From Candidatus Omnitrophota bacterium (GTDB lineage: Bacteria; Omnitrophota; Gorgyraeia; Gygaellales; Profunditerraquicolaceae): a stretch of DNA of 64,000 nucleotides. Under the pieces are notes generated by a model. It did no database searches. It had not been told where the DNA came from and saw nothing but the letters and a program-made list of their open reading frames with translations. A program made the position numbers and the translations under genes. This document shows positions 1 through 22,381 of this stretch, one piece after another. Where the stretch lies: assembly GCA_043800555.1 (NCBI GenBank), contig JAZDMX010000002.1, positions 668-64,667 on the forward strand, written 5' to 3'. Position 1 is the stretch's first letter; every line of letters begins with the position of its first letter.

Positions 1-3000
1 GCGGTAATCCAAGTCTGCTCCTTAATGTTAGCCTTATTCCCGTTCTTTCTGGTGAGATAGCCTTCGAATTTTTTCCTGTTTTCAGGAGTATCCTTCATGC
101 CAAACTTCTTGGTTCCTGAAGAAAGCAGTTCAATCATTTTCTCTCTGGCAGTTATTTGTATAAAAGTATAAATCCATGTTTTGAGCCCTACTGCCGGTGA
201 AGACGAAATTGTGGGATTTGAGGTTGCACTTCCGGAAATGCCAGCTTTTGCGGTGATTGAGGAAGACGCACTTTTCGCGCCACTGGTTTTTGCAGTCTCC
301 GGGCCGGGAATTACTTTGGCCGCGGTATAAGTCCTTACTGCAGCGCCTACATCTTTTCCGGCTCCTTGAGCCAGATTACCTGTATTACCGGATGCACCTT
401 CTGCACCCTGTCCCGCTTCTCCATCTCTGGAGATTGCACTCCGGGAACCTGCCAAACTTCTTAAAACGTTTGCTAAATTGCTTACTGCCTCTGCTACAAC
501 TGCACTTATTTGCGCTCTTATCTGTCTAAAACCGCTAACCAACTTTGAGTAAGAGTCGGTTAGTGAGCCGGCAGGCGGGGCTAATCCGGCTAAGTGAAGT
601 TTGCCATTACTGGTTATTAATGATAACGGGCTGCTCACAACCTTTAATCTGGCATTTAAACCGGGCAACATCGCCGGATTGACCGGGTTAACAATGCTTG
701 AGCTGCTTATAGCGCCAACCAATGAGCCTACGGGAGTGGAAGAAGAAGCAGTATTGGGTATCGTGACCGGAGATGACGCAGGCAAAGCAGTCTCTTTCTT
801 CTCGGTTAATGGCAGAGGCACTTCGCGCTGGCTACCACCCGGGCCATTGCCTTCACCCAAAACGCCTTTACCTATACTACCGCCACCACTGCCACCAACT
901 GCCAAAGCCGCCTTTACCGCTTCCGCTATAATTACCTGCTTCTGTGCCAAAGGAGACGAGGCAGCAACCCAACCACCCTGTTCAATGTATTCTGTTAATG
1001 CTTTTAAAGTAGGAGATAACGGCCTCTGTCCTGAAGCGCTTGGTTGCTGTTTCATACTCTGCATAATAAGCGATTCTATAAAGCTAACGACCGGCCCAGC
1101 CTCTTTACCAGCCTTTTGCAAACGAGCCTTTAGAGCGCCCCATTCAGCCTTGCCAAACTTAGTATCTATATTGCCGATTATCCCTTTAACCTTGCCGACA
1201 AACCCAGCATTAATTTCGTTGGGATCCTGGCTCTTAATATTAAAAGCCTCTCTAATAACTTCCAATAGTTTCTTGGATTTAGAGCCAGCCATCTCTTTCT
1301 CAACAACAGGCTTGCGGGTTGCATACCATTTTTTATATGCGTCTGTTCCATGAATCTGCGGGACATCTTCTTCTTTGATTAAATTACCTTCGATATCAAA
1401 TACCGGCAGGCGATCTTTTCCTGTTCCTCTCGTAATTTCAAACACTTGATCGGCAAAGATTCTATTAACTATAATACCTATTATCACATTAGGAGACAAT
1501 ACGCCTTTTTCTCTTGCGTTGCTTACATTAATCAATCTTCCTTCGGTATTTAAGACTCCGCCCTCTCCCTCAACCTTTGCTCTAGATATAATAAGAGTGA
1601 CTCTTCCATCAAAATTATCCATACCTGCTGTTAACTCCCGGGCTCCATGCCTGTAGGCATTATATTGATCCGCAAAGCCGCCGGGAAGCAAATAGTCGTA
1701 ACTTTCCGATAAGCTAAAACATATATTAGCTGCATCTTGATAGTTTGCTATGCCGATGTGGCTGGTAGGCATACCTGCTCCTGCTAACCTCTCTATTAAA
1801 TGCCCTTTGTTTTCTATCCCGATAGAAAGACTGTCCCTTAAATAATCCATATGAATTCCGCGCAGAATCTCACCCTTAATGCCACCAATGTCCTCGAATT
1901 GCCTATTAGAAGAGGCTTTTGCAACTACCGGCTTTTGCGCCAAAGGCGCAGAAGAACTAAGGCCTTCCGGCTTTTGGGCTTGTAGCGATGTTACTAAAGA
2001 AGAGCTGGCTTTATCTGTTTGCTCTCCTGACAATTCCGCTCTTTTTATGCCTGCAAAATGATCTGCGCCTTCCTGTGTGGCAAAATTCCAACTACCATAA
2101 GGCCGAGAATAAGCCTCCCCTCCAAAAACAGCTCGCTGCTCAACGGTAACTTCCCAGCCCGGTAAAGCCGGATGAACGAATACTTCCAGGGGTGCTTGCG
2201 CTGCCAATGTTTGAGCCTTTGACAGTCTTAGCTCTCTTAACATAGCTTGTCCCGCCGGGCTTGATAAATCGGTTTTGGCGCCGCCACCCCCAAACTCAAA
2301 GCGCCTAAACGGCATCAATGAACCTAATTCATTCTTTTCCACAATGGAATCGACTATTTCCTCATTGGCCGCATTGCCTATTTCTAAATCGCTTAGGCCG
2401 GCTATGTGCCCGATAGCGTCAAGAAGGGTATGGGTAATTTCGTGCGGTATGATTACAGTAAGCAAGTCGCCCCTCCAGCCCGGCCTTAAACCACCCTGCT
2501 CGTCCAGAAGCAGCCTGGAATTTAAGTTTATATTATAGCCGTATTCAGATATGGTGCTATCGGCCAAGCCGTAATCGCCTTCATAGGTATTAGCTGAAGC
2601 CTTTTCTATCTCTTCGTCTAACCGAAAAATAAGCTGCAACTCTTTACCTAAAGCTCCATACACGCCCTGCAGGTTACCTGCGCTTCCAATATTCGCGATG
2701 ACATCTCTGGCGCGCGCTATCTTTACAGCTGTTTCCTCTTTTTCATCTTGAGGCTTATTAACGGATTCCTGCTCCAGCTTATTCAAATAAGATTCCAGCT
2801 TGCTTGTAATCTTATGCAAATACTGCTTGATAAAACCAGCCCCAAGTTCTCCGGTAAGGGCTGCTTCCTGTATTTCCTTAGTCTTACCATCGCGGGCCGC
2901 AATTAAAGAGCCAGAAAGGGCTATGAGGCCTAAGGCCTGCCTGCGCAACATTTCAGCCCTGAAATAAGGCGTATAGAATATTCCGGCTCCGCCTTCTTGC

Positions 3001-6000
3001 GCCGCCACCTTCCTTAAGTTCCGATACGCCGCTATGGTCCTGGCCGAATTCATATCCGCCGGCAAATAATCCTGCCCTTGGCTAAATAGCGAAGAAATGG
3101 TAACTGTAGAAGGCGTATTATCTATAAGCAAAGCTCCTTTTTCGCCAGTTATAACCGGTATGACATTAACCTCTGCTTTACCCACATCCAAAATCGCCTT
3201 TTGCATCATCTTGTAGCTGCGGTAATACCTGTCGTATAAATACGTTCTAAGCATACCCTGCGCAGGCGCAGAATAATCCAGTTGATCCTGCATATTATCC
3301 GTAAATGTTTCAAATGATTCCTGCAACCCGTCAGGGAGCCCGCCTGCCGCTAAACTATCGCCTGACGGGAAATATTCTCCGATACTCTTAATGCGCTTCG
3401 CATATTTCTCCATGGAAGGGTTTTTCTCCAGCTGCTTCTTAAGCTCCGCGCTGTAACGGCTGTTGATACCGGCAAAATCAGCCAAGGTTGTAGCTTCTTT
3501 AAAGAACATATCGGTGAAATTAGATAAGCTGGAAGATGCCCCAAAGAATGAAAGTATATCTTGTTCGGCGCTGCTTAGGTCTCTCTTTTCGGTAAGTTCC
3601 GTAAGATAATCGCGCAATGCCTTATCTTGAGCAAGGATGTCCTGCGTGAAAAGCCTGTATGACGAAAAGATCGCGTAGAAACCCAACAAATCCGTGCCTG
3701 TATTATTAAATATGTCCGGGCTCTTTTCCAGCAAACCACGCAATTTGGATGCGGCTGTTACGGAATCATTCTGGTTGGCGATTTTAGAAAGAGAGGTTAT
3801 TTCCCTGGTGAACGCGGCATTGGCTTTCTGATAATCTGCTGCTGCTCTCCTGCCAAATGCATTTTCCCGGTTGATGACCGAATTATAAAGATAGAACATC
3901 TGGCTGCCGCTACCGGCAAGCAAGCCTTTTACAAAATAAGCCGGGTTGCGCAAGTAAGCCCTTAGCAAGGCCTCTTTTCCGCTTTCATAGAAGAGGGCAG
4001 CTTGTTGAGCTCCGGGAGTCAATAAGCGATAGGCCCCTGCTGCGGAAGCCAAAGAATCATAGGTATAATTAGGGTCTACCAATGCTACCAAGGCATCGGC
4101 AAGCTTGAATCTGTTAAAGCTGAACTTTTCAAAAGTAGGAATAAAATTATACCCGGCAGAATTTTCATCTGTGGGATATATATAGGCATTAATCTGCTCT
4201 ACCATATTCTGAAGATAATCAAAATAGTTGACATTATTGGCTTGGATTGCATTAGCCTGATTTCGGAAGCCTTCTAATACCTGATAGAAAGGCGAAGATT
4301 GAGGGGTATATGGAAGGATGGTATTTATTAACGCATCGGGTGAACCCCTTACGCCGTTAGCCAAACGCGCAGCCTCCAATTGCCCTAGTATTTTCTGGCG
4401 GGCTTCAAGGCTTAATTCTCCGGTTTGTCCTCTAGGCGCATCAGCTGTATTAAACCTCGCATTTTCGATAATTTGGACCACAGGATGGCTGGAATCAAAG
4501 TTGGAGTTTCTGATCTCATCTGGCAATACGCTCTTCTGCAACCCCTCCGGGCTCTTAGCTACTTCGGCAACGCCAAGCAAGCCGCTGGCATCCTGGAAAG
4601 AAGCTTTATCGTTGTAGGCTATCGAATCATATTTGTCTAAAATTCGCGCTGCCTCTGCCAAAACCGAGCGGGCATTGCTCCTCAGGAAATCAGGAGCATT
4701 AGGCTCATTAACGACTTTCTGGAATATGTCTTCGGCTTTTAAGGCAACTTCTTCAAGGGCCATTCTGATGCGCACTTCAGGAGCCTGGCCTGTTTCAGAA
4801 ATAACCACCTTGTAAGATTCTTTATGCTCTATGGCCTCTTTTAACAATTCTTGCAGCCGGGAAGAAAGCCCCGTGTCGCCCAGCGTATTCGCCTGCACGA
4901 CCATAGTTTTTAGCTTTTCGATTATGCCGCGGGACATAGCCGCTTCTCTTACCTGGAAGACAAGCGCGTCCGAAGTCTCGAGTGCTTCTTTTGCTTTCGA
5001 GCTATATTCCACTTTCCTCCTATAATAATCTCCGTCTCCCTCGCCAACGGCCTGCGGAATAAACTTACCAATGGCCCCTATTTCCTCAATCTTCTTCATG
5101 GTCCTAGTATCAAGATTATCTACGGATAACTTACCGTCTTCATAGTAAACAAGCCTCTTGCCCTCTTCAATATCTTCCCGGAGGCTTCTGTTGTTTCTGT
5201 TTATCGCCTGAATAAGGTCGGAACTTGTCCAGTTATGGGCATCTGCCACAATCAAATCAAAAGCGCCTTTATAATCAATACCGGTTGCTCCTCTTTCATT
5301 GGAGAGGACAATGAGCCTGTCTTCTCCTATGCGTTTACTTATATCAAGAATATCTCCTGCAGAAGTGCCCTCTTTTATCTCGGTAACCGTAAGGCCTTTT
5401 CCTTCGAGATTTGCCTTAATTGCCGCGCGCGCGTCTCTGTCTTTAACAAACACGATCAACCCCTTGGTAACGGCCAGATTGATGTCTTTTGCGTTTAACG
5501 GCATAATTTCCGCTGTTTCAAGGCCTTTCGACTCATGCGCAGTTAAAACCCTGTTTCCGATATTAAACAACAGCATAGACCTTACTGATTCCATGGTTCC
5601 GGAAGCGCCGGCAATAGAAGCGTTTTTCTTAAAACGCAGCATTTCTGAAAGGGTCGCCTGCGAAGATGACTTGGATATTTCCAAATTATTCTTAATGAGG
5701 CTTATATCTTTGCCGCTATATCCCAGCTTTTCCTTTTGAGCCGCAACTCTGGCATATATAGCAGCAAGGAACCCTTCTTCGCTAAATACTTTCTTTGCCT
5801 GGGCTTCTCCTCTATTACTCGGGACAATCTTGTTCCCAAGAACCGTAAAATTGCCTTGGCTCTGGGCATCCCGCGCAGCCAGGTATGCCCCGACTTCTTC
5901 CTTGCCAATACCGCGGTCTTTAAGTATATCCAGGGCCTGCCTGCTGATGACTGTTACCCCGTTTTGTTCATAAAAAGAGGCTTTTTTATTAGCTCTCGCC

Positions 6001-9000
6001 TCTTCTATGCCTGTTTCCCTGGAAATAGTGCCATTTTCGAACAAGGGCTCGATTATCCCGAATACTTCTTCAGCCCTGCTAATCTTAGCAGGAGATTTAT
6101 CAACTAATTTCTCTGCCCCGTAAGAACTGATAAAGGTCGTCTTATCCGAGAATGGAATATGGAATTCATCGAAACGCACTACATCGTGATTGTAAATTGC
6201 CCGCATTAAATCGGGGTCATCGGTCCTATTCCTTAAATGCCCGAATTTATCCATCGAGAATACGGTAATCATTTTTGCGTCTCTTAATACATCCTTGAGC
6301 TTGCCTGAATCAGTTTCATTATCCAGGGCGTCGCCATTCTTAATTTCCAAACCAAATTGGCCTAGGAATTCTGCATTATTCAACTCATTTGCCTTCACTC
6401 CCGAGCTTAAGGCCTGGCCCATTTCATCGGAATTCTTGATGACAAGCACCTCATTATTCTTATACACCAGTTTTCCGCCTATTCCTTCTGCCTTAAGCGC
6501 CGCCAGCAGGGCCATTTCTACAGGAAAAGCAAATGTCTTCCCGCCGCCTGAAGATTGCTGCACGCTGCCGCCTTTGGATAAGCCAACAATCATCCGCAAC
6601 TGGCCTTCTGCCGTATCTCTTGAGAACCCTTTGCCGAACTTACCTTCCATATATTTTAAGGCCGAGGCTATAACTATGCCGTATATCTCACTTTCATTAT
6701 TTCTTCCTTCTTTATTGGATTTAATATTCTGGGCAATAAATGCATCCGGCCTAAGCCCTGCGATAAACAAGGAGCCATCTTGAAATATTATCTTGCCCAA
6801 GTAAGCGTTAATGGAATCAACAATGGGCTGCAATTTTATAACATCATCCAGGCTTGCGCCTTCTTTAATACCGACTTTCAAGTCTTGGGTGAGCGTAAGA
6901 GCTCCGATATTAAACCCTGAAGCAGCTTTCTCCATGTCTTTCATGCTGTAGAACCGGCCAATCTCCGAAGAATATTCTGAAAGCTGCTCAACGCTAAAAG
7001 TAATTTTCTCGTTTGCCAGGGGGGAATCCTTGATCTTCTCTAAAGCTTTGCTAAACAAAGAGCCTTCTCTGGCTTGGATACTGTCAATAAACCGGCCGAG
7101 GCGATTCCTTGCTTTTAGCTCGACAGTATTTTCTCCCTCAAGCCTCCCGTAAAGAAGCCCGCCGGCTATCTCTATCAAGGATGCGGTATTTTCCTTAGCG
7201 GCCGACAGGCGCGCGTAATCTTTATTCGAACAAACCGTGCTCAATTCGCCTAATAAGTTATTAACTGCGCCTGCTTCTGTATTAAGCGTATCTGCTGTTA
7301 TGCCGGCATTGAGGATATTCCTTAACGCCCTTAAAGCTTCCAGGGCAGCGCTTAGATTCTCAAATCGTTTTATCTGCCTCCGGTATTCTGCCGCGGAAAC
7401 ATTGTCTACCAGCTCCTTGAGAATCGCATTGGGAGCGAGTTTAACAAAACCGTCCAAATCCGTTATGGGAGTTGTAATTTTTGCGGCCCTGACGTATTCA
7501 CCAATAAGCCCCCAGGTGCTTTCCAAAGCCTTGCTTGAGCCCTTAGAATCAGGGTAAAAATCCTTTATCTTGCCAAATGCCGTCTTTTTATCTTGCGCGT
7601 TATAAGCATCCACTAACCCTTTCTTTAATAACCCTAACTCGCTTAACTGCAATTGATGGATACGGCTTAAATCCGCGCCTTCAAGATAAGCGGATATCCT
7701 TCTCTCTCTCGCATGGAAATAATCTTTATATTTACCGGTTATGGCGGGCTCTTTTCCCTGCGCGCGCTGATACGCCAAGCTCTCGACCTCGCTCATTACT
7801 GAAGAGACATATTCCCTCTTTACTGCTTTATCGGTAATAGCGGACAGATTGGCGGTTAATGTTGTTTCAAATCTTTTCTTAAGGTTATCCGTTAATCCAT
7901 CCCTCCAGATTTCACCTAATTCTATGCCTTTTATCAGGCTGCCGCTCTTCCTTGCGCTCTCAAACAAGGAATCCAGCGCTTTTGTTTTAATCGCTCTGTC
8001 TATGCCTAGCTTAAGGATAATATCCTTCCTGCCGGGGAACCTGAAAGCGATATCCGTAGTGTCGCCTATAGCGGCTTTTGAAACTCTGGCAGCTTCATCG
8101 GAAGTAGCAAAATCCAATAAGCCCGTTCCGCTTCTAAAATTGATTATTGAAGCATCAACCACTTTCCTGACCAAGACATAATTGCCATGATTTGAAGAAA
8201 GTTCTTTTATCTTATTAATCTCTGTTTGTACCTGAGGCCCGTTATCAGCCAAAGCTTCAGTCTTTATCCCTTCTGAAGGATAAGAATTCCTCTGCGCGAC
8301 AAAATCATTAAGATATCCGATAACCCCTTCCTGGTTCCCTTTTAATACCGCATCAAAAGCTTTCTTAAAATTATTGCCTTTATCCCAAATAAAATTAGCC
8401 TGCCCCTCAAGAACTGCCCTGGTAACACCTTCCGGCTCTCCAAGGTTATCATGGGCAAACTTTATGAAATTATCTTTTACGGCGGAGCTAAACCCGGTCA
8501 TCTTCGCTACAGCTTGTTCAAAATTCCCGCCGTTTTCTCTTAATATACCTTTGAACGCATAAAAATCTTCCCTGGAGAGCGCCGTAGCTCCAGCCCTGTC
8601 AATTAAAGAAGGCTCTAAACTCGGCGCCATAAAGAACGGAAGCCACTTAAAAGCTTCTTTTTCTCCGCCGGATAAATAACCGTTTACGCTAAAAAGAGGG
8701 ATTTCTTTACCGTTAATATTAACGCTTCCCTGCTTTCCTGTCTGAAGATCCTTGAGCGGCCGGGCATCAAGCTGGATTCCCGCTGCATTTGCCAAGACGG
8801 AATCGGCCAAGGCTACTGCCTTATCAACGCCTGAAACAAAGCCCGGCATCCAGATTACAGAAGAATCAATCCATTTTCCAAAGCTTATTGCCCTGCCTAA
8901 AGCTCCTGCCGTAGGATTAATTGCCTTAAAAACTATGCCATCTGCGGCATTTTTCTGCAACCCGGACTTTTCTAAGCCCAGCCTGCCGATATTGATAATT

Positions 9001-12000: not shown

Positions 12001-15000
12001 TGGCCAAAAAGCGGCGCAACGCTAATCTGATCTTTTGTGTCTACCTGAATATTGACAGGCACTTGGGAATCATCAAGGAATTTATGCGTCTCCAGGTCCA
12101 GCCCAAAAGCAATAATCCGGCTGGCAATATTGCTGGCGGCAGAATCAGAAGAACCTGTTGTATTTTCCGGAATCATATAGGGGCTTAACAACGGCAACCA
12201 TTTCGATGGGACAACAACGTTGTTATCAACGGCAAAACATAAGACCTTATCGACATAAGTAACCGGGACCTTCTGCGGTTTCCCGGTGGAATCATTCGGA
12301 AGGATACCGCCGATAATCTTGCTGTTTTGGCTGATTATTTCATTGAAAATTTCGAACTTGGAATCATTAACGACGCGGCCAACGGGCCGGACCACAGAGG
12401 TGATCTTAAATGTCGCGCCAAAATAATCGCTATCCATCACATCCTTGACAATGGGCTTTGCCGCCTGCTGCGGGTAAAAGACGCGCATCTTAGCCGAAGT
12501 GCCTTTAAAATCCGGGCCATTAGGAGCCATATGAGATATCAATTGGTCGCCTTTGATTGTGGCGCGGCCAATGGACATGCCGGAACTGGCTATAAGAGTA
12601 GTCCCGGAAACGCCGGTTAAAGGCGCCGCCCTAAATGCACGCGGGTCAGAATCAGAGCTTCCGATTTCAAAAGGCAAAACTCCCTTATACATAATCCCGT
12701 ATTGCTTATCAAAGTAGCGCACATAAAACCGGTAACTATCTCTGGTAAAACGGATATCGCTTCCCTTGGCTCCCTTAACGGCATCGGGGCTGGAACCCGG
12801 GATATAGGGCATCAACGAATTGTTGACCAGCAAAATACCTTGCTTCTTGCTTGGATCAACAGACGCCTCAATGCCCCAATGAGCGCCCTGCGCCCATATC
12901 CCCTGAATACCGGCTTCCAGGGATTTCTTTCCGGACATTACCGTCTTAAGGTAATGTGGTTTATTTTCAGCCAATACCGAAGAGAACTCTCCATTGCCCT
13001 TACCGAGAAACTCTACGGCGATGCTGCCATTATTATAATTGATCCGCTGGCCTATCCTTGCCGAGAATTCCCCTGTTAAAAGCTGCGCTTTTTCTGAACC
13101 CGAAACCGAAAAGATTTGATAATCCTTATCGGCCAGAGGGATCATCCGGCTATAGTCGCTGCCTGATGCGCCTCTCAACGGCCAAGCCCAGTTCTTCGGA
13201 TCCAGGTCCAACTGGCCATGTTGAATCGGCACGCCCTGCAGGCGCTCAAACAGATACCCGGCTGCGGTAACCGGAGCGCGTGTCGCCCCGGTTACAATCG
13301 TTCCGTCTAAAACTGCCGGCCCGACTGTGCCGCTAGGAGCTATTCCCCAAGGGACGCCTTTTGCGGTAAATTCAATAAATCCATCGCCTATAGCCGCACC
13401 GCTTTCCGTTTTCGACTCAAGATTTATAATCGCGGCTTGGCCCCGCACCGCAGTAGCTGCGTTTGTGCTCTTGCCCTCCGGCACAGCTAACGCGGCAGCG
13501 TCAATAAACGTCAAAGCGGATTTCGTTAATACAAGAGGCTTGCCGTTGTAGAGATATTTTGCGTCCTCAGCCTTTGATAAAGGCACATTAACGCCATTAT
13601 TCGTAATAAGCGTCGCGCCTTTTGCGCCCAGGAAAAGATTAACAATCCCGTCTGTTGAACGCTCGCTATCCAACATCGCCCCCACAGGCACTTCATGATA
13701 AACTATTGCCTTAAGGCCATTCTGGTTACGCGCAATAGAGCCTGTTATTTCGACTTTTTGCCCCAATGTGCCGCTGATATACGCCTTCTGCGGCTTGGTT
13801 TCTGAACGCCACATGCCGTCGGCGCCTATTGAGATACGCTCTTTGATCCCATAGCTAAACTTTACAGGCATCGGCCCTCTATCGGTTTGGGCCAAAGCCC
13901 CAACCATATCGCCCCTATTATAGTAACGGTCATTGGCAATGGGCCTAAGCGCGCCATTCATCATATTAACCTTACCGTTTTCAGGAATAATAGCCACCAG
14001 GTTCTGCTCTTTGGCAATCTGCCAATCAAGCGTAGCTAATCCGGGTTTCAACGAAGAGATATCGGTTTTATCGCTGCCGCCGGCGCCGGGCACCAGATAA
14101 TCAGAAGGCGCTAAAGCAAAGAGGCGCTTAACACCGTCGTAGCCTTCTCCGCGGGCAGGCTTGCCGTCTTTTGTGGTCGAGGTAAGAGTAAAACTGCTTG
14201 TCGGCAGGAGTTGGCCGTTGGCAAGTTTAAGCGTGGTTCTTCCTGTTTCCATATCCCACGCGAATCCTCCGGGCGCTTCCCCGGAAACTTTGGCTCCAGA
14301 AACAAGGATATTGTTTGCTTCCTTCTTCAAAACCGCGCTACCGGACAATCCTTCAACTCTTATAGCGGAAGGATCCGTAATAACGTTCCAAATAGAATGG
14401 CCGCGAGGCCCAAGGGCATTGACAATACCGCCCTGGCTCTGCCACATCAAGGCATTCAAACGGTCGCCGGAACCAATCACATTATAAAGGTTCCCGGAGG
14501 CTACCTCAAAAACCTGATTGGCGCGCGCTACGCCAAAACCAAATGCCGTATCCAGCTTTCCGGCAGCCACTTGTTCAGCCTCCTTTTGCAATCCAAGGCT
14601 CTTAAACATAGCGGCCGCGGTATCTTTAGTAATATGGGTATTATCGAGGTATGCCCCATCCAACATCCATTGGCCTGACCAACGGTGCCAAAGCGGCTGG
14701 AAATTCCCCATAATGTCTTTATGCGAAGCGCTGTTTGTAACCAAGGCTCCTTCGATATTTCCTCCATTGGCGCGCACAACAATCTTCTGGCCATCGGATG
14801 CTACAATGCTAAGCCCATCTTGCAAGAATATTTCTTCGCCGGGCACAGGCTTTCCGGAGGCATAAACATCCAAAGATACGGAAGCAAGGCCGAGATCAAT
14901 TAATTTATTTTTCCATTTATCCGAAGTAACGACCCTCCTGTAAGCCTCCTGGAAATCTAGCTGCGCGTCGTTAGCGCTTAAACTTGCCGCCGCCATTCGA

Positions 15001-18000
15001 ATCTGATTCTTAATCTCTTTCCATTCACTTAACTGCTGCGGGGTCGGATCTTTATGCCAGATGTCGTTGGTAAGGGCGCCGGTCATGGTCCAGCCGTAAT
15101 TCAACCCTTCGGCCCCGGGCACGATAGACAAGCCATAATCAGAGCTTCCCAACGGCCTTATATACCACTTGGCTAAACGGGCAAAGGAAGAATCGCTGTC
15201 GCTAGAGCGTAAAATATCCGGGGTAATCCCGAGAGCTTTATAAGTCCTGGCGCTAAAACCTGCGGCCCCCAAAGTAGCCACTCCCAATATATCCCTTAAA
15301 GTGCTCGAGCTGAATACCCCGTCTAAGGCGTTTATCAACGGAGACGCCGGAGCCTGTAACCCGGCATTAACAAAACTGCTGCCAATGGCTACCCCGGGCT
15401 GAACGCTTTGGGTAATATTATCGAAAAACAGTTTGTTTTCTTTAATTTCAATCTCGCGGTTAGACTTTAACTCGCCGTTATCCTGGTATAAATTTTCCTT
15501 CCAGCTCGTATATCCGGAACCATTCGCCCAGTAATTACCGGTTATTACCGAAAGGGCTTTTGCGGGGCCGTTCTTATCTATTACGGTTTGAATCTGATTA
15601 GTTTGGTTAAATACGAGGTTGCCCCATTTGTCCTCGATGCTTAAATTATCAAACCTGGTCGCGGATAATTTATCGGTGTTTGAATACAATGTCAGCCTGC
15701 CGGACTGTAATACCGAATCGGCGTCGCGATAAGTGGTCATAAAGCTTAGCGGCAGGCCAAATACTTCCCGGAAGCTGGAAACTACCCCGATAATGCCCTC
15801 TGTGTTCCTTATGGCTCCGGATTGGTATATGTCGTGGGCCAACTGGCTCCATCCGGCGATAAAGCTGCTCTGCTGGCTTGATTTGGCATTATACAAAGAG
15901 AAGGTCCCGTTGCCGTTACTGACCCAGATATTGCCCGCCGCATCCATATACTTTAACCCGGAACGCACATTATTGCTCATAAAGATTTTGGCGTCACTGG
16001 AATCGCTGATCAGAATAAGGGTGGTTATCGTGCCGTCTTTTAAGGCCAAGCTCACTGTTGAACCGTTTCCTGTGGTTATGCCGTAGAATGAAGTTGAGGA
16101 CATCTGCTGCCGGAGCAATTCCTGCGTCTGCGGGGCGAATGTCGAGGTTAAGCTGCGCATATAGGATATTTCTCCCAACGCAGACTGTTCGCGCCCGCTA
16201 TATCCGAAACTAAGGGCATTTAATGAATCTCTGTATAAGGCATCGGTTACGCTGCTTAAGAAGCCCGTCTCAGGGATAAATGCCGACGGGGCCTTTGTTG
16301 AATTCAACGACTGGATATCCGTAGTCAAGGGCGAAAGCAAGCTCTCGGCCAAGCCCCTGATTGCGGCAGTTCCGGCGTCTGTCAGGTATGCTGCCATAAC
16401 CGCGGTCATATTCGGATTGTTCTTGAGTATTTCGGATTCTACTTTAGCCGCGCCTATAGCCAGAAAACCGGACAGCAGGCCCCGACTAATGCTCTGGTAT
16501 ACAGGCGTCTTGTCAAAATAAGAGCCGGCAACGCCTCCTATCCCTGAAGATATTGCCGAAACATACGGTAAATTATCCAAATCTTTGGAATTAAGCCCGA
16601 TTAGCCCGGGGTTACGGGTAATTATTTCTGCCGCGCCGCTGCCGATTAAACCGGAAATCAGCCTGCCTTTAGTTAAATCCCATGTTGCGCTGCCATAACT
16701 TAATATTCCGGCTTCTGTCAGATTAGGGTTATTTAAATTAGTTGCGTATATTTTACCGGCTGCCGTATCCACATACTGGCCGTTATAATTATAGAGTGCC
16801 CCGTTAACCGCGGTATTAACAGCCAGGCCCGCGGTATTGCCAAGATACATAGCAAGCACATTACTGTTAACTCCGAGGTCTGAAGCCAGCCGCGTAGCGT
16901 AGGTTCCGGCTGCATTCGTTAATGCCCCGCTAATACCGCGTTGCACCCAATGATCCTGGAGCCCGTTTGTTAATTTGCCCAACCCGCCAACCATTCCCAG
17001 TAAAGCTCCGCTGGCAAAAGAAGCGTATAGCTCCGCTTCCCTCTGGTTGACTCCAGTCAGGGTTAATGCGCCTGAAGACAAATAAGCTATTTGGCCGTTA
17101 GCCATACCTTGGAAGACGTTGCCAACGTTAGAGAAAAATCCCGGCGTCTTAACGCTTAACTGGGCGACAGGCGCTGTTGCAGGAGAAGTTAAACTGCTTG
17201 CAGTATACTGGTTCCAGGCATTTACCGCTAACCCTGCGGCTGTTCCGCCTGCGGCGTAAAAATACCAATTATCCCCAAACCAGTCCCCGGTTTTTAATCT
17301 ATTTACTGCCACTCCTGCCGCAGCTCCGGTCAAAGCATATCTTACATATGAGTTCATTCCCGCGTATGTCTGGCTGCTAAACCAACCCTTAACCGGGCTG
17401 GAAACATATTTGCTATATTCTTTAATCTTCTGCGCGTATGAAAAGATTATCGAAGTAGGGTCATTCCAGGAGCTCGCTACATAATTTGCGCCAAGCCCGG
17501 CAAGCGCTCCTCCGGCAGCATACAAATACCAGGAGTCCCCAAACCATTTTCCGGTAGTCAGGCTGTTAACGACGATTCCGGTAACAACTCCGGTTAAGGC
17601 GTATCTGGCATAAGAAGGCATCCCGGCGTATGTCCCGGTGCTAAACCAGCTTGAAGCTACGCTGGAAAATCCCGCCATCGCTAAAGACACCCCTACGCTT
17701 ATTGCCAAATCTTTCACAAAAGCAGCCTCGGCTTTATTGCGTAAAGAAGAAACTTCGCTCTTTAAACTATTCAGGGTTTTTTCTCTGATATACTGTATCT
17801 CGGCTGCGGAAGCATGCTTATTCCAGACAGACGGGGTGGTCGCCCCCAGGATCTTCTTGCTCTCTGAAACAGGTAATGCCTGTAAGCCATCCGGCAGAAA
17901 GCTGACCAGGCAATAACCGCTGAAACCGTTTAAGAATTTATCTTTCGGCAGGAACTCTTCCCTGTGATTGTCGCTAAAGTAAACCTTGTCTCCGGTTACG

Positions 18001-18701
18001 CGGGTAACCAGGACGTAATGATCGCCGTTTAAGTGGGCAATAAAAGGAGCTAAAGATTCCAAACCGCGGGTATTGGATTCTAAAGCAGTATCGATTTTAA
18101 CCGGGTAAAGTTTTTGGCCAAAAAATATGGCTGCCTGGGACAAAGCGTAAAGGGAATTCTTGATGACCTTGGGGTTGCCTTCCGGCTTGATGATATCATT
18201 TAGTATATCTACGGACAAAACAAATACCGCGATATCCTGCTCTTCAACCTTAACCCCTTTATAGCTTAAGAAGTCATAAAGGGCCTTGGAACCGCAAGGC
18301 TTGCCCAATAACCAGTTATAAAGCTCATCTATCCTCTGATTGGACATTTTCAGAGGCTTGTCCAGGTTTATAGTCAGGTTATCCGAGATTTTTATGGCTG
18401 TTACCGGTTTATTGGCTATATCTTTGAGGATTCTCTTTACTGCTTGAGGGATATTGACATTTTGGACATTTTGAAGGTAATTCGGGGCTATTATACTGCC
18501 GGAGGGAAGGCCTATAGCCGGTTTACTCCAGAGCACGCGCCAATCGTATTCTACTGCTTGCGCTGCCTGTTCAGGCAAGAAGACCGCGGCCACAATAAAA
18601 GCTACCACGCGAATCCAAGCCTTGAAACTAGAGTGGAACTTTTCCTTGGATTTTTCTTGGATAACTTTCCGGTCTTCTGTCTGTTGCTTTTGCTTTATCA
18701 T
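1..18701 (-). CDS. Giant multidomain protein, 5' portion only (at least 6,233 codons within the window). The ORF runs off the window at position 1, so no stop is seen. Contains an N-terminal signal-anchor, a papain-like/C39-like peptidase motif, two tandem Gly-zipper repeats, an SF2/DEAD-like ATPase core, an HExxH motif and a Ser/Gly-rich low-complexity C-terminal tract.
   Basis: No complete ORF of 60 aa or more is reported in the minus frame whose end is congruent to 2 mod 3 anywhere in 1-18701, while the other five frames are littered with short ORFs. A manual codon walk from ATG at 18699-18701 (in-frame TAG upstream at 18717-18719) reaches position 1 without a stop. N-terminus MIKQKQQ...AWIRVVAFIVAAVFLPEQAAQA. 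Cys at codon 136 (LLGKPCGSKALYDF) and His at codon 228 (GDHYVLVTRVTGDKVYFSDN). Walker-A-like QQSSGGGKTFAFPVE (about 6528-6552), DEFH (about 6152-6172), RGATGIDYKG/AINRNNR (about 5260-5290). HEITHTLLDAIGH (2430-2444). Confidence 0.85.
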   Translation of the reverse strand, partial: MIKQKQQTEDRKVIQEKSKEKFHSSFKAWIRVVAFIVAAVFLPEQAAQAVEYDWRVLWSKPAIGLPSGSIIAPNYLQNVQNVNIPQAVKRILKDIANKPVTAIKISDNLTINLDKPLKMSNQRIDELYNWLLGKPCGSKALYDFLSYKGVKVEEQDIAVFVLSVDILNDIIKPEGNPKVIKNSLYALSQAAIFFGQKLYPVKIDTALESNTRGLESLAPFIAHLNGDHYVLVTRVTGDKVYFSDNHREEFLPKDKFLNGFSGYCLVSFLPDGLQALPVSESKKILGATTPSVWNKHASAAEIQYIREKTLNSLKSEVSSLRNKAEAAFVKDLAISVGVSLAMAGFSSVASSWFSTGTYAGMPSYARYALTGVVTGIVVNSLTTGKWFGDSWYLYAAGGALAGLGANYVASSWNDPTSIIFSYAQKIKEYSKYVSSPVKGWFSSQTYAGMNSYVRYALTGAAAGVAVNRLKTGDWFGDNWYFYAAGGTAAGLAVNAWNQYTASSLTSPATAPVAQLSVKTPGFFSNVGNVFQGMANGQIAYLSSGALTLTGVNQREAELYASFASGALLGMVGGLGKLTNGLQDHWVQRGISGALTNAAGTYATRLASDLGVNSNVLAMYLGNTAGLAVNTAVNGALYNYNGQYVDTAAGKIYATNLNNPNLTEAGILSYGSATWDLTKGRLISGLIGSGAAEIITRNPGLIGLNSKDLDNLPYVSAISSGIGGVAGSYFDKTPVYQSISRGLLSGFLAIGAAKVESEILKNNPNMTAVMAAYLTDAGTAAIRGLAESLLSPLTTDIQSLNSTKAPSAFIPETGFLSSVTDALYRDSLNALSFGYSGREQSALGEISYMRSLTSTFAPQTQELLRQQMSSTSFYGITTGNGSTVSLALKDGTITTLILISDSSDAKIFMSNNVRSGLKYMDAAGNIWVSNGNGTFSLYNAKSSQQSSFIAGWSQLAHDIYQSGAIRNTEGIIGVVSSFREVFGLPLSFMTTYRDADSVLQSGRLTLYSNTDKLSATRFDNLSIEDKWGNLVFNQTNQIQTVIDKNGPAKALSVITGNYWANGSGYTSWKENLYQDNGELKSNREIEIKENKLFFDNITQSVQPGVAIGSSFVNAGLQAPASPLINALDGVFSSSTLRDILGVATLGAAGFSARTYKALGITPDILRSSDSDSSFARLAKWYIRPLGSSDYGLSIVPGAEGLNYGWTMTGALTNDIWHKDPTPQQLSEWKEIKNQIRMAAASLSANDAQLDFQEAYRRVVTSDKWKNKLIDLGLASVSLDVYASGKPVPGEEIFLQDGLSIVASDGQKIVVRANGGNIEGALVTNSASHKDIMGNFQPLWHRWSGQWMLDGAYLDNTHITKDTAAAMFKSLGLQKEAEQVAAGKLDTAFGFGVARANQVFEVASGNLYNVIGSGDRLNALMWQSQGGIVNALGPRGHSIWNVITDPSAIRVEGLSGSAVLKKEANNILVSGAKVSGEAPGGFAWDMETGRTTLKLANGQLLPTSSFTLTSTTKDGKPARGEGYDGVKRLFALAPSDYLVPGAGGSDKTDISSLKPGLATLDWQIAKEQNLVAIIPENGKVNMMNGALRPIANDRYYNRGDMVGALAQTDRGPMPVKFSYGIKERISIGADGMWRSETKPQKAYISGTLGQKVEITGSIARNQNGLKAIVYHEVPVGAMLDSERSTDGIVNLFLGAKGATLITNNGVNVPLSKAEDAKYLYNGKPLVLTKSALTFIDAAALAVPEGKSTNAATAVRGQAAIINLESKTESGAAIGDGFIEFTAKGVPWGIAPSGTVGPAVLDGTIVTGATRAPVTAAGYLFERLQGVPIQHGQLDLDPKNWAWPLRGASGSDYSRMIPLADKDYQIFSVSGSEKAQLLTGEFSARIGQRINYNNGSIAVEFLGKGNGEFSSVLAENKPHYLKTVMSGKKSLEAGIQGIWAQGAHWGIEASVDPSKKQGILLVNNSLMPYIPGSSPDAVKGAKGSDIRFTRDSYRFYVRYFDKQYGIMYKGVLPFEIGSSDSDPRAFRAAPLTGVSGTTLIASSGMSIGRATIKGDQLISHMAPNGPDFKGTSAKMRVFYPQQAAKPIVKDVMDSDYFGATFKITSVVRPVGRVVNDSKFEIFNEIISQNSKIIGGILPNDSTGKPQKVPVTYVDKVLCFAVDNNVVVPSKWLPLLSPYMIPENTTGSSDSAASNIASRIIAFGLDLETHKFLDDSQVPVNIQVDTKDQISVAPLFGQLGTRLVLTGTGKVGEQAILNNPAGSRYVSTLEAIDGRAVQSWEGTSEGVQVQQSARERIVNAPVSSNDNSGSGIILTARGVNAPVLAFEPDSNGSAANPQGGSWKTISLKWDGLPAMSLKSSGSKEPLQLSIAKNADKTDIPGVWEAALSRDHAVDVPLADLKGHLLSLDNSSNETVSGKRISSDRLFSFGATDPSARLNNKVRLDEGSLPVSINPDNMQSRLMTQDAGTQFTAVQGIKLGNQEVSSGKYISTIDIKAGGASGRGELTHTFTGSLPGTAVKLASGEYQLMSDGQWAKMELASIGGPAGGLSIPDNVAASLKIIAGSFGQIGGWLTYASGEIANLAGAKNDSAYYLRQSKEFTAEGLAQLGYFDAKAGRYLEKGIDAGFATLFTGATAFGSGADYLLGYMTGINTLKQWGNEAWTRTNLHAIRSIPGLFYSEPTRKSIYGYLEENGSIRVDRVGDNSQDWDLIDPGTGFKIKASEAGGLGSLKAGIEEGNYLINNGYAASGLYELAIAYLGKAGMTAIELGVLKNAGFSITNSSIQFAAVSDVLANQISYMSSGKALTFGQDALINFSFINPAVTQSVALTVGIPNAVSAGRSVYDNRSKINSVANFGESVWNGFLPRDANFALVAAGLTGPLGKSIAAGEGYALARSVFSQSALWGQVNAITGASLAALNGDGQRITASNVLTSYAQGAANGAIFGAIFGASSAIVNLSSASAISNMIKEYPLISSIAIGAGAFPLAKTIIESESSDQDFLSRLASNSNLLNYARGAVIGLGAWYGLKTGMITGSGLDRFGYGFAVGATAKAGVNLTGDLITGNTKPLRAYIMDAVSGGFLGGLTALYIGKQGMEITRNLKTFGGAGALQETKVLGILNLSKAVGPELLYNRALAGAIEWTAVSPAFTFGGALWNGVFYKAGLLDVHSDSAKGWLMVERGLGKDKNGSFKPVYGPLTMTDILQSAVTGPRSGLWMKPMIEVFQMKTSKAPALTSGGLFEKIINIGRLGLEKSGLQKNAADGIVFKAINPTAGALGRAISFGKWIDSSVIWMPGFVSGVDKAVALADSVLANAAGIQLDARPLKDLQTGKQGSVNINGKEIPLFSVNGYLSGGEKEAFKWLPFFMAPSLEPSLIDRAGATALSREDFYAFKGILRENGGNFEQAVAKMTGFSSAVKDNFIKFAHDNLGEPEGVTRAVLEGQANFIWDKGNNFKKAFDAVLKGNQEGVIGYLNDFVAQRNSYPSEGIKTEALADNGPQVQTEINKIKELSSNHGNYVLVRKVVDASIINFRSGTGLLDFATSDEAARVSKAAIGDTTDIAFRFPGRKDIILKLGIDRAIKTKALDSLFESARKSGSLIKGIELGEIWRDGLTDNLKKRFETTLTANLSAITDKAVKREYVSSVMSEVESLAYQRAQGKEPAITGKYKDYFHARERRISAYLEGADLSRIHQLQLSELGLLKKGLVDAYNAQDKKTAFGKIKDFYPDSKGSSKALESTWGLIGEYVRAAKITTPITDLDGFVKLAPNAILKELVDNVSAAEYRRQIKRFENLSAALEALRALRNILNAGITADTLNTEAGAVNNLLGELSTVCSNKDYARLSAAKENTASLIEIAGGLLYGRLEGENTVELKARNRLGRFIDSIQAREGSLFSKALEKIKDSPLANEKITFSVEQLSEYSSEIGRFYSMKDMEKAASGFNIGALTLTQDLKVGIKEGASLDDVIKLQPIVDSINAYLGKIIFQDGSLFIAGLRPDAFIAQNIKSNKEGRNNESEIYGIVIASALKYMEGKFGKGFSRDTAEGQLRMIVGLSKGGSVQQSSGGGKTFAFPVEMALLAALKAEGIGGKLVYKNNEVLVIKNSDEMGQALSSGVKANELNNAEFLGQFGLEIKNGDALDNETDSGKLKDVLRDAKMITVFSMDKFGHLRNRTDDPDLMRAIYNHDVVRFDEFHIPFSDKTTFISSYGAEKLVDKSPAKISRAEEVFGIIEPLFENGTISRETGIEEARANKKASFYEQNGVTVISRQALDILKDRGIGKEEVGAYLAARDAQSQGNFTVLGNKIVPSNRGEAQAKKVFSEEGFLAAIYARVAAQKEKLGYSGKDISLIKNNLEISKSSSQATLSEMLRFKKNASIAGASGTMESVRSMLLFNIGNRVLTAHESKGLETAEIMPLNAKDINLAVTKGLIVFVKDRDARAAIKANLEGKGLTVTEIKEGTSAGDILDISKRIGEDRLIVLSNERGATGIDYKGAFDLIVADAHNWTSSDLIQAINRNNRSLREDIEEGKRLVYYEDGKLSVDNLDTRTMKKIEEIGAIGKFIPQAVGEGDGDYYRRKVEYSSKAKEALETSDALVFQVREAAMSRGIIEKLKTMVVQANTLGDTGLSSRLQELLKEAIEHKESYKVVISETGQAPEVRIRMALEEVALKAEDIFQKVVNEPNAPDFLRSNARSVLAEAARILDKYDSIAYNDKASFQDASGLLGVAEVAKSPEGLQKSVLPDEIRNSNFDSSHPVVQIIENARFNTADAPRGQTGELSLEARQKILGQLEAARLANGVRGSPDALINTILPYTPQSSPFYQVLEGFRNQANAIQANNVNYFDYLQNMVEQINAYIYPTDENSAGYNFIPTFEKFSFNRFKLADALVALVDPNYTYDSLASAAGAYRLLTPGAQQAALFYESGKEALLRAYLRNPAYFVKGLLAGSGSQMFYLYNSVINRENAFGRRAAADYQKANAAFTREITSLSKIANQNDSVTAASKLRGLLEKSPDIFNNTGTDLLGFYAIFSSYRLFTQDILAQDKALRDYLTELTEKRDLSSAEQDILSFFGASSSLSNFTDMFFKEATTLADFAGINSRYSAELKKQLEKNPSMEKYAKRIKSIGEYFPSGDSLAAGGLPDGLQESFETFTDNMQDQLDYSAPAQGMLRTYLYDRYYRSYKMMQKAILDVGKAEVNVIPVITGEKGALLIDNTPSTVTISSLFSQGQDYLPADMNSARTIAAYRNLRKVAAQEGGAGIFYTPYFRAEMLRRQALGLIALSGSLIAARDGKTKEIQEAALTGELGAGFIKQYLHKITSKLESYLNKLEQESVNKPQDEKEETAVKIARARDVIANIGSAGNLQGVYGALGKELQLIFRLDEEIEKASANTYEGDYGLADSTISEYGYNINLNSRLLLDEQGGLRPGWRGDLLTVIIPHEITHTLLDAIGHIAGLSDLEIGNAANEEIVDSIVEKNELGSLMPFRRFEFGGGGAKTDLSSPAGQAMLRELRLSKAQTLAAQAPLEVFVHPALPGWEVTVEQRAVFGGEAYSRPYGSWNFATQEGADHFAGIKRAELSGEQTDKASSSLVTSLQAQKPEGLSSSAPLAQKPVVAKASSNRQFEDIGGIKGEILRGIHMDYLRDSLSIGIENKGHLIERLAGAGMPTSHIGIANYQDAANICFSLSESYDYLLPGGFADQYNAYRHGARELTAGMDNFDGRVTLIISRAKVEGEGGVLNTEGRLINVSNAREKGVLSPNVIIGIIVNRIFADQVFEITRGTGKDRLPVFDIEGNLIKEEDVPQIHGTDAYKKWYATRKPVVEKEMAGSKSKKLLEVIREAFNIKSQDPNEINAGFVGKVKGIIGNIDTKFGKAEWGALKARLQKAGKEAGPVVSFIESLIMQSMKQQPSASGQRPLSPTLKALTEYIEQGGWVAASSPLAQKQVIIAEAVKAALAVGGSGGGSIGKGVLGEGNGPGGSQREVPLPLTEKKETALPASSPVTIPNTASSSTPVGSLVGAISSSSIVNPVNPAMLPGLNARLKVVSSPLSLITSNGKLHLAGLAPPAGSLTDSYSKLVSGFRQIRAQISAVVAEAVSNLANVLRSLAGSRSAISRDGEAGQGAEGASGNTGNLAQGAGKDVGAAVRTYTAAKVIPGPETAKTSGAKSASSSITAKAGISGSATSNPTISSSPAVGLKTWIYTFIQITAREKMIELLSSGTKKFGMKDTPENRKKFEGYLTRKNGNKANIKEQTWIT
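17195..17650 (-). repeat. Intragenic tandem repeat (2 x about 65 codons) inside the giant gene, encoding glycine-zipper-like hydrophobic units (WF..TYAGM.SY.RYALTG...V.VN.L.TG.WFGD.WY.YAAGG.AGL..N)
   Basis: Direct translation gives two consecutive, clearly homologous units; the DNA shows the corresponding about 200-bp tandem duplication. Confidence 0.6.
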
Positions 18702-19105
18702 TTTATATTTATATTTCTATATACACAAAATGCAATATAAAAGTTTCCCCTTACCCCATCACTCTTCTTAGATTGAATGAGAAAATTCTTCATATTGGTT
18801 TTATAAAGCGTTTATTAAATACTTTACTAAGCCGCTAAAAATAAATCCGAGCTGTCAAATATATCGTCGGTATTTCGGCAGCTCGGCTATCCTTTGATAA
18901 TCCCGATGTTTTAACTTCTCTTAGGACCCGTAGCTTTGCGTCCTCAAATTGCTCTGAGTTTGCCATTTCGTTAGTTGTTGTTGGTTGTTCCAATCACAAC
19001 CAGAGTATAACACACAGCTCGTCGCTGTCAAGAAGAAATTCCACTTTTTTTGGTAGCGCTTTCCCGGTCAAAAACCCCCTGTTTTTACTGCACTTTTAAA
19101 TGCAA

Positions 19106-19214
19106 AAAAAGGGGGACGTTTCTACTTTTCCGGCAACTTGAAGCGTGAAAAAGGGGGACGTTTCTACTTTTCCGGCAACTTGAAGCGTGAAAAGTAGAAA
19201 CGTCCCCCTTTTTC
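19106..19214. repeat. Palindromic hairpin repeat, copy 1 (complex form: left arm + loop duplicated, then right arm)
   Basis: GAAAAAGGGGGACGTTTCTACTTTTC at 19106-19130 and again at 19147-19172. Loop CGGCAACTTGAAGCGT twice. Right arm GAAAAGTAGAAACGTCCCCCTTTTTC at 19189-19214. Confidence 0.9.
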
Positions 19215-21515: not shown

Positions 21516-21516
21516 A

Positions 21517-22363
21517 TTAAATAGTTATTGCGCTGAATTTACGGATTAAAAACATCCCGATAACCTGCAATAATACCGCTAAAACCAAAAGCATCCTGCC
21601 TATGTCGCTGCCAAGCATTATATCAAAATGATGCCTGTTCACCGAAACCACCCAAAGCACAAACAAAATCGGCAAAAATGACATAATCGCCCCCTGCATC
21701 CTCCCTTGAAGAGTCAGGGTTTTAACGCTCTCTTTAAGCTTGCGGTTATCCCTGATAGTGGTGGTCAGGCGGCTAAAAACTTTTGTCAGCTCGCCACCTG
21801 TTTCCCGTGACACTAACAGAGCGTTAACAACCAGGCTCAACTCCTCGATATTCATCCTTTGGTTCAACCTTACGAGGCTATCCTCAAAAGGTATGCCCAT
21901 TTTGTTCTCTTTAAGCAGCAGGCTCAACTCCTGGCTCATCGGAGGCGGCATCTCCTCCACTAAAACCTCAAACCCCTGCAACAGGCTTAAGCCGCCCTTT
22001 AAACAACTGGAAAGCATGCTGATGGCGTCTAGGAGCTGGGCATTAAATTTTTGTTTATTCCGGGCCAGGCGCATTTTAAGGATAAAATTAGGTATGACCA
22101 AGCCTACTGCCCCGGCGATTATCGCGGGGATTAAAGATTGGGAAAGAAAATAACCCGTTATGCTAAAAACTACCGGCAGGATGAAATAAAGCCGGGCAAT
22201 TGCCTGCGGGCTTTTATCATAAAACACCTGGTCCATCTGTTTTATGACCTTAGCTTCTTTTGCCGCATGCCAGGATTCTACCCGCTTCAAAAATACCGGG
22301 AAAATGCTTATGGCGATTAAAACCACCGAACCCATTATCAACAAACTGAATAATATTATCATG
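21517..22363 (-). CDS. tadB: Tad pilus inner-membrane platform protein, TadB-like (T2SS F-domain)
   Basis: The ORF track extends to 22497, but a real start at MIILFSLLIMG (ATG 22361-22363) avoids overlap with the flp gene. T2SSF-like core (…LLDAISMLSSCLKGGLSLLQGFEVL…). Confidence 0.7.
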
Positions 22364-22381
22364 TTTTCTTCGCGTTTTGGC

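Follow-up and report, generated by a model that had tools for sequence, protein, structure and literature searches.

A stretch of 64,000 nucleotides from a Candidatus Omnitrophota bacterium (assembly GCA_043800555.1, contig JAZDMX010000002.1, positions 668 to 64,667; hereafter, the window) begins inside a giant gene that is encoded on its minus strand. We consider it likely that the window holds the 5' part, 6,233 codons long, of a giant gene for a membrane protein with a C39 peptidase and a SecA-like motor, and that this gene, located 3' of a Tad/type-II-like locus, is led by a riboswitch. Judged from the sequence, the giant gene is a predicted separate transcription unit with its own promoter and leader. 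The modules of the protein are ordered as follows: a signal sequence and the C39 domain, a duplicated Gly-rich unit, a variable region, a Gly-rich block, the SecA-like motor, a helical tail, and a module with the motif HEITH. The positions of all these features are listed in Table 1.

The giant open frame and its relatives in Omnitrophota

Translation of window positions 3-18701 (minus strand) gave 6,233 codons without a single stop, as compared with 178, 402, 251, 401, and 462 stops in the remaining five frames of 1-18701. This bears out the initial annotation, a reading of the DNA alone, which had described one uninterrupted minus-strand frame from 18701 to 1 with the other frames chopped. 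Upstream of the ATG at 18701, the closest in-frame stop is found at position 18719. The start agrees with more than 25 homologues whose sequences open with a Met aligned to it, and the frame is unclosed at window position 1. The ratio of nonsynonymous to synonymous substitution rates (dN/dS) against the closest relative (L004) was ~0.10 for amino acids (aa) 1-300 and ~0.21 for aa 600-1200; it was measurable only in this N-terminal part, as synonymous sites were saturated past aa 1200. Purifying selection acts on the giant frame where it is measurable, and the open giant frame is real.

Two related loci have the C39 part called as a separate open reading frame (ORF) ahead of the long ORF, with 480 aa in L002 (a metagenome contig, in which an ORF of 14,858 aa follows) and 407 aa in L003. 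These separate ORFs, together with the slightly lower G+C of 1-10000 (0.45-0.47, vs 0.49-0.51 in 10001-18000), could be taken to mean that the long frame is an artefact, either an assembly chimera or a set of genes fused by sequencing errors. We regard this as extremely improbable. The lack of stops in 6,233 codons against 178-462 elsewhere is impossible by chance, the same module order is repeated in the independent assemblies P0008 and P0016, and of the 43 relatives for which 6 kb or more of downstream sequence is available, 40 have the frame unclosed to the end of the available locus sequence.

A search with aa 1-520 returned 50 proteins with 50-66% identity, nearly all from Candidatus Omnitrophica or Omnitrophota and most of them annotated as [quoted passage not shown]. 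Those partial C39 proteins represent the N-terminal beginnings of long genes that were truncated where the contigs end. Scanning one genome per GTDB species revealed 99 relatives, essentially all in Omnitrophota metagenome-assembled genomes, from which 80 loci were kept. The best of them, from UBA6233, had 78% identity, and synteny between this genome and the window extends over the upstream genes (56-85% aa identity).

The protein had been described as a combination of domains not normally found together. On the contrary, the combination is the published signature of Omnitrophota giant genes, which consists of C39 at the N-terminus, a SecA_DEAD domain of divergent sequence, and, 5' of the gene, a type-II/Tad-like locus that includes RcpC and a Rotamase peptidyl-prolyl isomerase (PPIase) (10.1101/2023.11.21.568195; 10.64898/2026.06.07.730766), and the C39 and SecA_DEAD groups are the two largest architecture clusters of Nielsen & Lui 2026 (10.64898/2026.06.07.730766). 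Because both the protein and its upstream locus match the published pattern, the domain combination is the norm for the phylum and not an oddity. Nor did the claimed rarity of giant genes hold within the phylum Omnitrophota.

Our gene shares with the giants of West-Roberts 2023 and Nielsen & Lui 2026 the phylum, a signal peptide followed by C39, membrane-spanning segments, and a divergent SecA-like DEAD motor without a detectable scaffold or wing. Common to both are also upstream genes of the GspD/E/F type, RcpC, a Rotamase PPIase, and small genes for pilin-like proteins that carry class III signal peptides. It differs in that the window shows 6,233 aa, under the 10-30 kaa (thousand aa) thresholds of these papers, with the gene running past the window, and in that none of the subtype-defining glycosyltransferase, methyltransferase, NUDIX, and dockerin domains is in the visible part. 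Likewise, Pfam and NCBIfam searches of the visible 6,233 aa revealed no Archaeovorin-type enzyme set and no Dockerin repeats. The giant gene is a divergent member of the already catalogued Omnitrophota C39/SecA class.

Table 1 Features of the giant gene, its leader, and the upstream genes (window coordinates; aa positions are those of the giant protein)
Feature	Position	Strand	Evidence
Giant ORF, 5' part, at least 6,233 codons	1..18701	-	Stop counts, homologue N-termini, dN/dS
Conserved module with the sole HExxH, within WRGDL...HEITH...IGNxANEExVD	2286..3269	-	Conservation; HEITH at aa 5420-5424, window 2430-2444
Conserved, mostly helical tail after the motor, aa ~4541-4930	3912..5081	-	Aligns in at least 10 large homologues
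SecA-like ATPase motor, aa ~4020-4540: nucleotide-binding domain (NBD) 1 with Walker A GGGKT and DEFH, PPXD-like insert, NBD2	5082..6644	-	Profile, fold
Gly-rich hydrophobic block, conserved, aa ~2880-3420	8442..10061	-	Common to P0002, P0005, P0016, P0019, and 8 loci
Non-repetitive variable region, Gly/Ala/Ser/Asn/Thr-rich, aa ~500-2880 (about 2,400 aa)	10062..17201	-	Alignment limits
Duplicated Gly-rich hydrophobic units, aa ~330-500	17202..17714	-	Internal BLAST
C39-like cysteine peptidase domain, aa ~100-270, Cys136 and His228	17892..18404	-	PF03412
Signal peptide or signal anchor: Lys-rich tail, hydrophobic segment aa 29-45, AQA/VE motif (putative cleavage AQA-VE)	18555..18701	-	Hydropathy, conservation
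Predicted intrinsic terminator: CCGAGCUG, 24 nt, CAGCUCGG, then AUUUAUUUUU	18837..18886	-	Hairpin of -16 kcal/mol and T-tract
Putative c-di-GMP-I-clan riboswitch aptamer, best Rfam model RF03167 (c-di-GMP-I-GGC)	18873..18973	-	Covariance-model match
Putative sigma-70-type promoter, near-consensus, TTGACA-16-TGnTATACT	19004..19031	-	11/12 hexamer matches, extended -10 TG
Two tandem long hairpins, a T-run after each, 3' of the porin gene	19104..19208	-	Read from sequence
OprB-family porin gene between TadC and the giant gene promoter	19305..20534	-	PF04966, E = 2e-32
Tad/type-II-like secretion-pilus locus	20655..36448	-	Pfam matches, pilin-like ORFs

Modules of the giant protein

The motifs quoted in the initial annotation are all present, namely KPCGSKALYDF (Cys136), GDHYVLV (His228), GGGKTFAF (~aa 4053), DEFH (~aa 4178), RGATGIDYKG (~aa 4470), QAINRNNR (~aa 4498), and HEITH. 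Over the visible 6,233 aa, C39 alone was a significant match in Pfam and NCBIfam, and the others were sub-threshold (E 0.005-0.3).

The N-terminal hydrophobic segment has a hydropathy peak of 1.8 (Kyte-Doolittle) and the pattern VAFxxxxxFLPEQxAQA is nearly invariant among 32 homologues; the signal would be cleaved after AQA. The following domain, read earlier as a C39-like Cys136/His228 pair, does match PF03412 with 23.9 bits against a gathering threshold of 22, though just profile positions 73-127 of 133 are aligned, and it has a weak match to the PCAT protease domain in the PDB (6mpz, E = 0.04). PF03412 is also precomputed on 46 of the 50 N-terminal homologues. Cys136 and His228 are invariant in all 32 aligned homologues, and the domain therefore looks catalytically competent; C39-like domains of RTX exporters, by contrast, are not. 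In the same alignment Asp244, located after the His and thus a candidate for the third catalytic residue, is not invariant, His246 and Glu248 are nearly so, and the family-wide conservation ends sharply at ~aa 290. As in the C39 domains of bacteriocin/PCAT ABC transporters, the papain-like Cys/His are found in the expected context and the Pfam match is above threshold. In contrast to those domains, the one in the giant protein has no ABC fusion and follows a signal sequence, and only the C-terminal half of the profile aligns to it. No ABC domain was detected by Pfam in the giant protein or the neighbouring proteins. Given its placement after the signal sequence, the C39 domain is probably extracytoplasmic.

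The duplication of hydrophobic units that had been noticed was recovered by comparing the protein with itself: aa 346-375 and 434-463 are 63% identical (E = 7e-7). This is the only internal repeat, and the self-comparison of the 6,233 aa showed no tandem repeat arrays or other internal repeats. The homologue P0087 carries the glycine-zipper families PF13441 and PF05433 (precomputed), and the window's own copy has no Pfam match. The variable region that follows has no Pfam or NCBIfam match, aligns to the closest relatives only, and is wholly missing from the homologue P0016. Around the conserved Gly-rich block, uncharged hydrophobic stretches were found at aa 2806-2834, 2891-2962, and 3134-3153, so placed that the block probably is a membrane-spanning region, and hydropathy indicated no hydrophobic segment past ~aa 3153.

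The initial annotation proposed a mosaic surface protein. This description fits at most a part of the giant protein, because an ATP-driven SecA-like module must be cytoplasmic, and no hydrophobic segment follows past ~aa 3153. A related reading is that of a conventional giant protein similar to RTX, Bap, or LapA, either a repeat adhesin or a toxin secreted by the type I route, in which the enzyme motifs would have arisen by chance. Great length, a signal sequence, and long Gly/Ala/Ser/Asn/Thr-rich stretches would be expected of such a protein, and cyclic di-GMP (c-di-GMP), the probable ligand of the leader described below, commonly controls adhesins. But the protein has no repeats save the one 30-aa duplication and no adhesin, RTX, or Ig-like Pfam match, and the motifs are part of modules that are conserved across many homologues, with the ATPase predicted to fold as SecA. 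The reading as a conventional adhesin or toxin of this kind is largely refuted, and we consider it very improbable.

The ATPase core had been assigned to the SF2/DEAD-like type, which our analyses support and refine to a SecA-like motor based on profile and fold. A word-indexed search gave one homologue each for the ATPase and the HEITH regions, and an exhaustive HMMER search gave 40 ATPase homologues, many of them with 3,000-7,800 aa. In an 18-sequence alignment the family motifs are G(G/S)GKT (Walker A), FGHLRN, DEFHxPFSDxTT, QATLSExLRF...GASGT, SNxRGATGxDY, and QAIxRNxR; Lys36, Asp159, and Glu160 of the ATPase segment are invariant in 18/18 sequences. An insert of ~150 residues in NBD1 occupies the position of the SecA PPXD, with a weak PPXD profile match (2.1 bits). 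Compared with the PDB, the alignment profile matched Thermotoga SecA best (E = 1.2e-5), followed by SecA2 and then a DEAD-box helicase. The Thermotoga SecA match consists of three co-linear pieces, covering Walker A, the cross-linking domain, and motif III through NBD2. An AlphaFold2 model based on the 18 sequences (pLDDT 77, pTM 0.68) was searched against the PDB using Foldseek, and the top 20 matches were all SecA or SecA2 (best E = 2.8e-13, ~590 aligned columns), with a TM of 0.57 to SecY-bound SecA. Single segments searched against the PDB by phmmer gave nothing for the ATPase. Two attempts with a two-sequence alignment were discarded, as the AlphaFold2 model reached a pLDDT of 39 and hhalign against E. 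coli SecA gave a spurious match only.

Could the ATPase be a nucleic-acid helicase or translocase instead of a protein-translocation motor? Members of the family match only the generic DEAD and Helicase_C families of Pfam. The co-linear SecA profile matches that include the PPXD region, the Foldseek list of SecA and SecA2 only, the SecA-type motifs FGHLRN, DEFHxPFSDxTT, and QATLSExLRF...GASGT in the family alignment, and the position of the module within a membrane protein that adjoins a secretion locus all speak against a helicase, which we consider improbable. As modelled, the ATPase module folds and would work like a SecA motor, and it is not a canonical SecA. With SecA/SecA2 translocation ATPases it shares two RecA-like domains with Walker A and B. 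It differs from them in being ~13-17% identical, in sitting mid-way inside a giant membrane protein, in having no detectable helical scaffold, wing, or C-terminal linker, and in not reaching Pfam SecA_DEAD.

The motif HEITH is the sole HExxH of the protein (1 occurrence vs 0.018 expected from composition). The block WRGDL..HEITH..LDA..AG..L.IGN.ANEE.VD is invariant in P0024 and P0092, the only homologues that cover it, and HEITH together with NEE ~27 residues downstream is invariant in 3/3 sequences, with no recognised family fold assigned. The NEE would, by analogy, resemble the third-ligand motif of gluzincins. The module has no Pfam family, and its profile gave nothing against the PDB. The HExxH site noted earlier is thus conserved in the two covering homologues, but it matched no known metallopeptidase family in Pfam or the PDB. 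Two metagenome scans found no relatives of aa 5590-5900 or of the HEITH module. The Ser/Ala/Pro-rich C-terminal part of the visible protein (aa 5575-6030, ~window 610-1980, minus strand) contains several copies of a short motif, "SS(A)PLAQK" or "ASSP(L/V)", which may mark linkers or processing sites.

It is also conceivable, although we hold it rather unlikely, that the product is a polyprotein precursor cut by C39, and perhaps by the HEITH module, into proteins of ordinary size; this would be compatible with the giant C39/SecA-like membrane protein favoured here. The invariant catalytic Cys/His, the conserved HEITH module, and the separate C39 ORFs of L002 and L003 agree with it, and proteolytic cleavage of giant proteins was proposed by West-Roberts et al. 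2023 (10.1101/2023.11.21.568195). On the other hand, no cleavage sites or double-glycine leaders were identified, and if the N-terminus is exported, C39 and most of the protein may face opposite sides of the membrane.

The putative promoter-riboswitch leader

The leader elements are outside 1-18701 and absent from the initial annotation. The putative aptamer matches RF03167 over the full model with 65 bits (gathering threshold 59, E = 4e-13), and at this site another family from that clan likewise scores above gathering. The same Rfam match was found at equal distance upstream in 7/7 relative loci tested. Using our own covariance model, built from eight copies, we detected 75 aptamers in the window and 82 loci. 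An aptamer is located within 450 nt of the start in 65 of the 76 testable related genes, with a median distance from aptamer end to start of 165 nt. The aptamer alignment, which was fitted to the model in a way that favours the result, has 97.5% of cells paired, with compensatory changes at 11 of 21 pairs, far above shuffled and slid controls; 0/500 shuffles reached the observed value of 150 compensatory cells.

The elements around the aptamer are conserved as well. Of 64 related leaders, 61 have a promoter with a score of at least 10/12 located 11-25 nt 5' of the aptamer, as compared with 2% of shuffled sequences. A stable hairpin with a T-tract follows ~20-30 nt after the aptamer in 65/65 leaders, and in 64 of them the 5' arm of this hairpin is contained in the aptamer's 3' strand. 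In the window the 5' arm of the terminator is the 3' strand of an aptamer helix, and the terminator hairpin forms in both the minimum-free-energy and centroid folds of the ligand-free leader. Because the 5' arm of the terminator lies inside the aptamer, the geometry is that of an ON switch. In the absence of ligand the terminator would form and transcription would end ~140 nt 5' of the ATG. When a cyclic dinucleotide, most likely c-di-GMP, is bound, the aptamer would retain the arm and the polymerase would read through.

All 75 aptamers have GCAAAGC, in which an A replaces the G of the RF03167 consensus, and the invariant core positions G and C are retained in them. These we take to be the canonical c-di-GMP contacts, as in the Vibrio Vc2 structure, and on this ground c-di-GMP is the likeliest ligand. 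A different ligand (c-AMP-GMP or that of the GGC class), an OFF switch, or translational control appears unlikely to us. Such a mode would find room in the ~135 nt of AU-rich leader between terminator and ATG, where further control elements could be located, and the best Rfam model is indeed the variant RF03167 and not RF01051. The A in place of the RF03167 consensus G in 75/75 aptamers and the kept G/C positions argue against a ligand of that variant; the terminator arm inside the aptamer in 64/65 leaders and the ligand-free fold that favours the terminator argue against another mode.

With the c-di-GMP-I (GEMM) riboswitches (CL00126, including RF01051 and RF03167), the leader RNA shares the aptamer architecture, the GNRA tetraloop, the conserved core, and a terminator-type platform, and many GEMM RNAs likewise precede a gene for a large envelope protein. 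It differs in fitting the GGC-variant model best while having an A at its G position, in the size of the gene that it precedes (18.7 kb or more), and in being accompanied by a near-consensus promoter throughout a phylum-level gene family. We lean slightly towards the view that C39/SecA-type giant genes across Omnitrophota are gated in this way, by a dedicated near-consensus promoter and, behind it, an aptamer of the c-di-GMP-I type that overlaps with a terminator and works with it as an ON switch. The texts of both giant-gene preprints contain no riboswitch, c-di-GMP control, or promoter-riboswitch-terminator leader (10.1101/2023.11.21.568195; 10.64898/2026.06.07.730766), and we found no report in the papers searched that links riboswitches to Omnitrophota genes. 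The riboswitch-giant gene link looks unreported.

Second or distant copies of the aptamer were detected several kb 5' of the giant gene in three loci (L049 5783-5940, L044 888-985, and L053 2575-2671), which suggests that the riboswitch also controls other genes in those genomes. In L002 and L003, a Y1-type (IS200-like) transposase gene is located between the Tad locus and the riboswitch leader (8574-9278 and 6637-7362, respectively). Upstream of the promoter, the unit cacgcttcaagttgccggaaaagtagaaacgtccccctttt occurs in tandem and pairs with gggggacgtttctactttt into long perfect hairpins (window 19104-19260, minus strand). The tandem hairpins probably terminate the upstream operon, and Rfam matches to miRNA and snoRNA families at 19107-19260 were rejected as artefacts of these terminator hairpins.

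The surrounding locus and the proposed role of the leader

The locus upstream of the giant gene includes genes for the PPIase, RcpC, a secretin with TonB_C, a TadZ-TadA fusion, a 717-aa protein, nine pilin-like proteins, a TadG-like protein, TadB, and TadC. A locus of this make-up, with more than 10 genes, has been described ahead of Omnitrophota giant genes (10.1101/2023.11.21.568195). Homologues of TadB and TadC were found in 47 and 50 related loci, all on the strand of the giant gene. Two fusions at 30819-34617 (minus strand) are unusual: a 720-aa protein joining a TadZ/CpaE-like ParA ATPase to a TadA/CpaF (T2SSE) ATPase, and the secretin with its C-terminal TonB_C domain. The 717-aa protein (28123-30276, minus strand) has no Pfam match and a coiled-coil-looking centre rich in Glu/Lys/Arg/Ala, and was found upstream in 13 related loci. 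At 24973-28081 (minus strand), nine successive small ORFs of 47-219 aa each start with a class III signal peptide of the "(K/R)KGQSTLEYV" type, after which comes a hydrophobic helix, and resemble a series of genes for pilins or pseudopilins. Among the window ORFs of at least 150 aa, none was seen to encode a prepilin peptidase (A24). The porin gene that separates the locus from the giant gene is present at that position only in the four closest loci (L004-L007).

Further upstream, a divergent trio of genes (37154-40842, plus strand) encodes a FIST sensor, a GAF histidine kinase, and a REC-GGDEF-like response regulator. The last was considered as a source of c-di-GMP and dropped, as its motif is GGDDF and not GG(D/E)EF; its domain may be degenerate, and possibly a receptor rather than a cyclase. 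Genes for envelope and glycan hydrolases, namely GHL10, NlpC/P60 with an SH3b domain, and GH39, are located at 42828-45390 and 56041-57942 (minus strand). The published proposal for the end function of giant proteins is contact with, and degradation of, the cell envelope of a host or prey; these genes fit the cell-wall-degradation idea and prove nothing.

Taken together, the giant protein probably has its anchor in the inner membrane; the peptidase at the N-terminus and the variable region would lie outside the cytoplasm, and the part from the motor onward inside. The motor probably powers the export of segments of the giant protein or of its partners, and the C39 domain, possibly along with the HEITH site, may cleave the giant protein or its partners.

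Several points weigh against this reading. The gene is truncated by the window edge, with the C-terminal domains and the downstream genes beyond it, and the topology was derived from crude hydropathy alone. The window's own ATPase segment has no Pfam match at E <= 1, SecA_DEAD included, so the SecA assignment stands on the family profile and on an AlphaFold2 model with a pLDDT of 77. The SecA scaffold and wing were not detected by sequence comparison, and the profile of aa 4520-4960 showed no similarity to E. coli SecA. In the leader, ligand binding and the direction of switching are predictions, and to our knowledge the ligand of the variant class RF03167 has never been settled experimentally. 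Also, 11 of the 76 related genes have no aptamer within 450 nt (five have one farther upstream and six have none), and no clear diguanylate cyclase was identified in the window, given that the regulator carries GGDDF.

The giant gene alone is one more, rather divergent example of the class described in two preprints, and as such of modest interest, although the 18-sequence alignment and the SecA-like model provide a defined ATPase core for biochemistry. The leader is the useful part, as an RNA of ~110 nt could be tested against c-di-GMP in vitro without culturing. A ligand-ON switch, if true, would link giant-protein expression to second-messenger signalling, which fits the PilZ genes that, together with sugar-uptake genes, were reported downstream of giant genes by West-Roberts et al. 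2023 (10.1101/2023.11.21.568195). Proteins that range in length from 6,000 to over 15,000 residues would then be made only when the cyclic-dinucleotide signal is high, for example upon contact with a host or prey, and this would explain how a tiny cell spares itself the wasteful transcription of an 18-45 kb gene. If true, the leader would also be the first feature through which the timing and the purpose of making the giant proteins of Omnitrophota become accessible to experiment.

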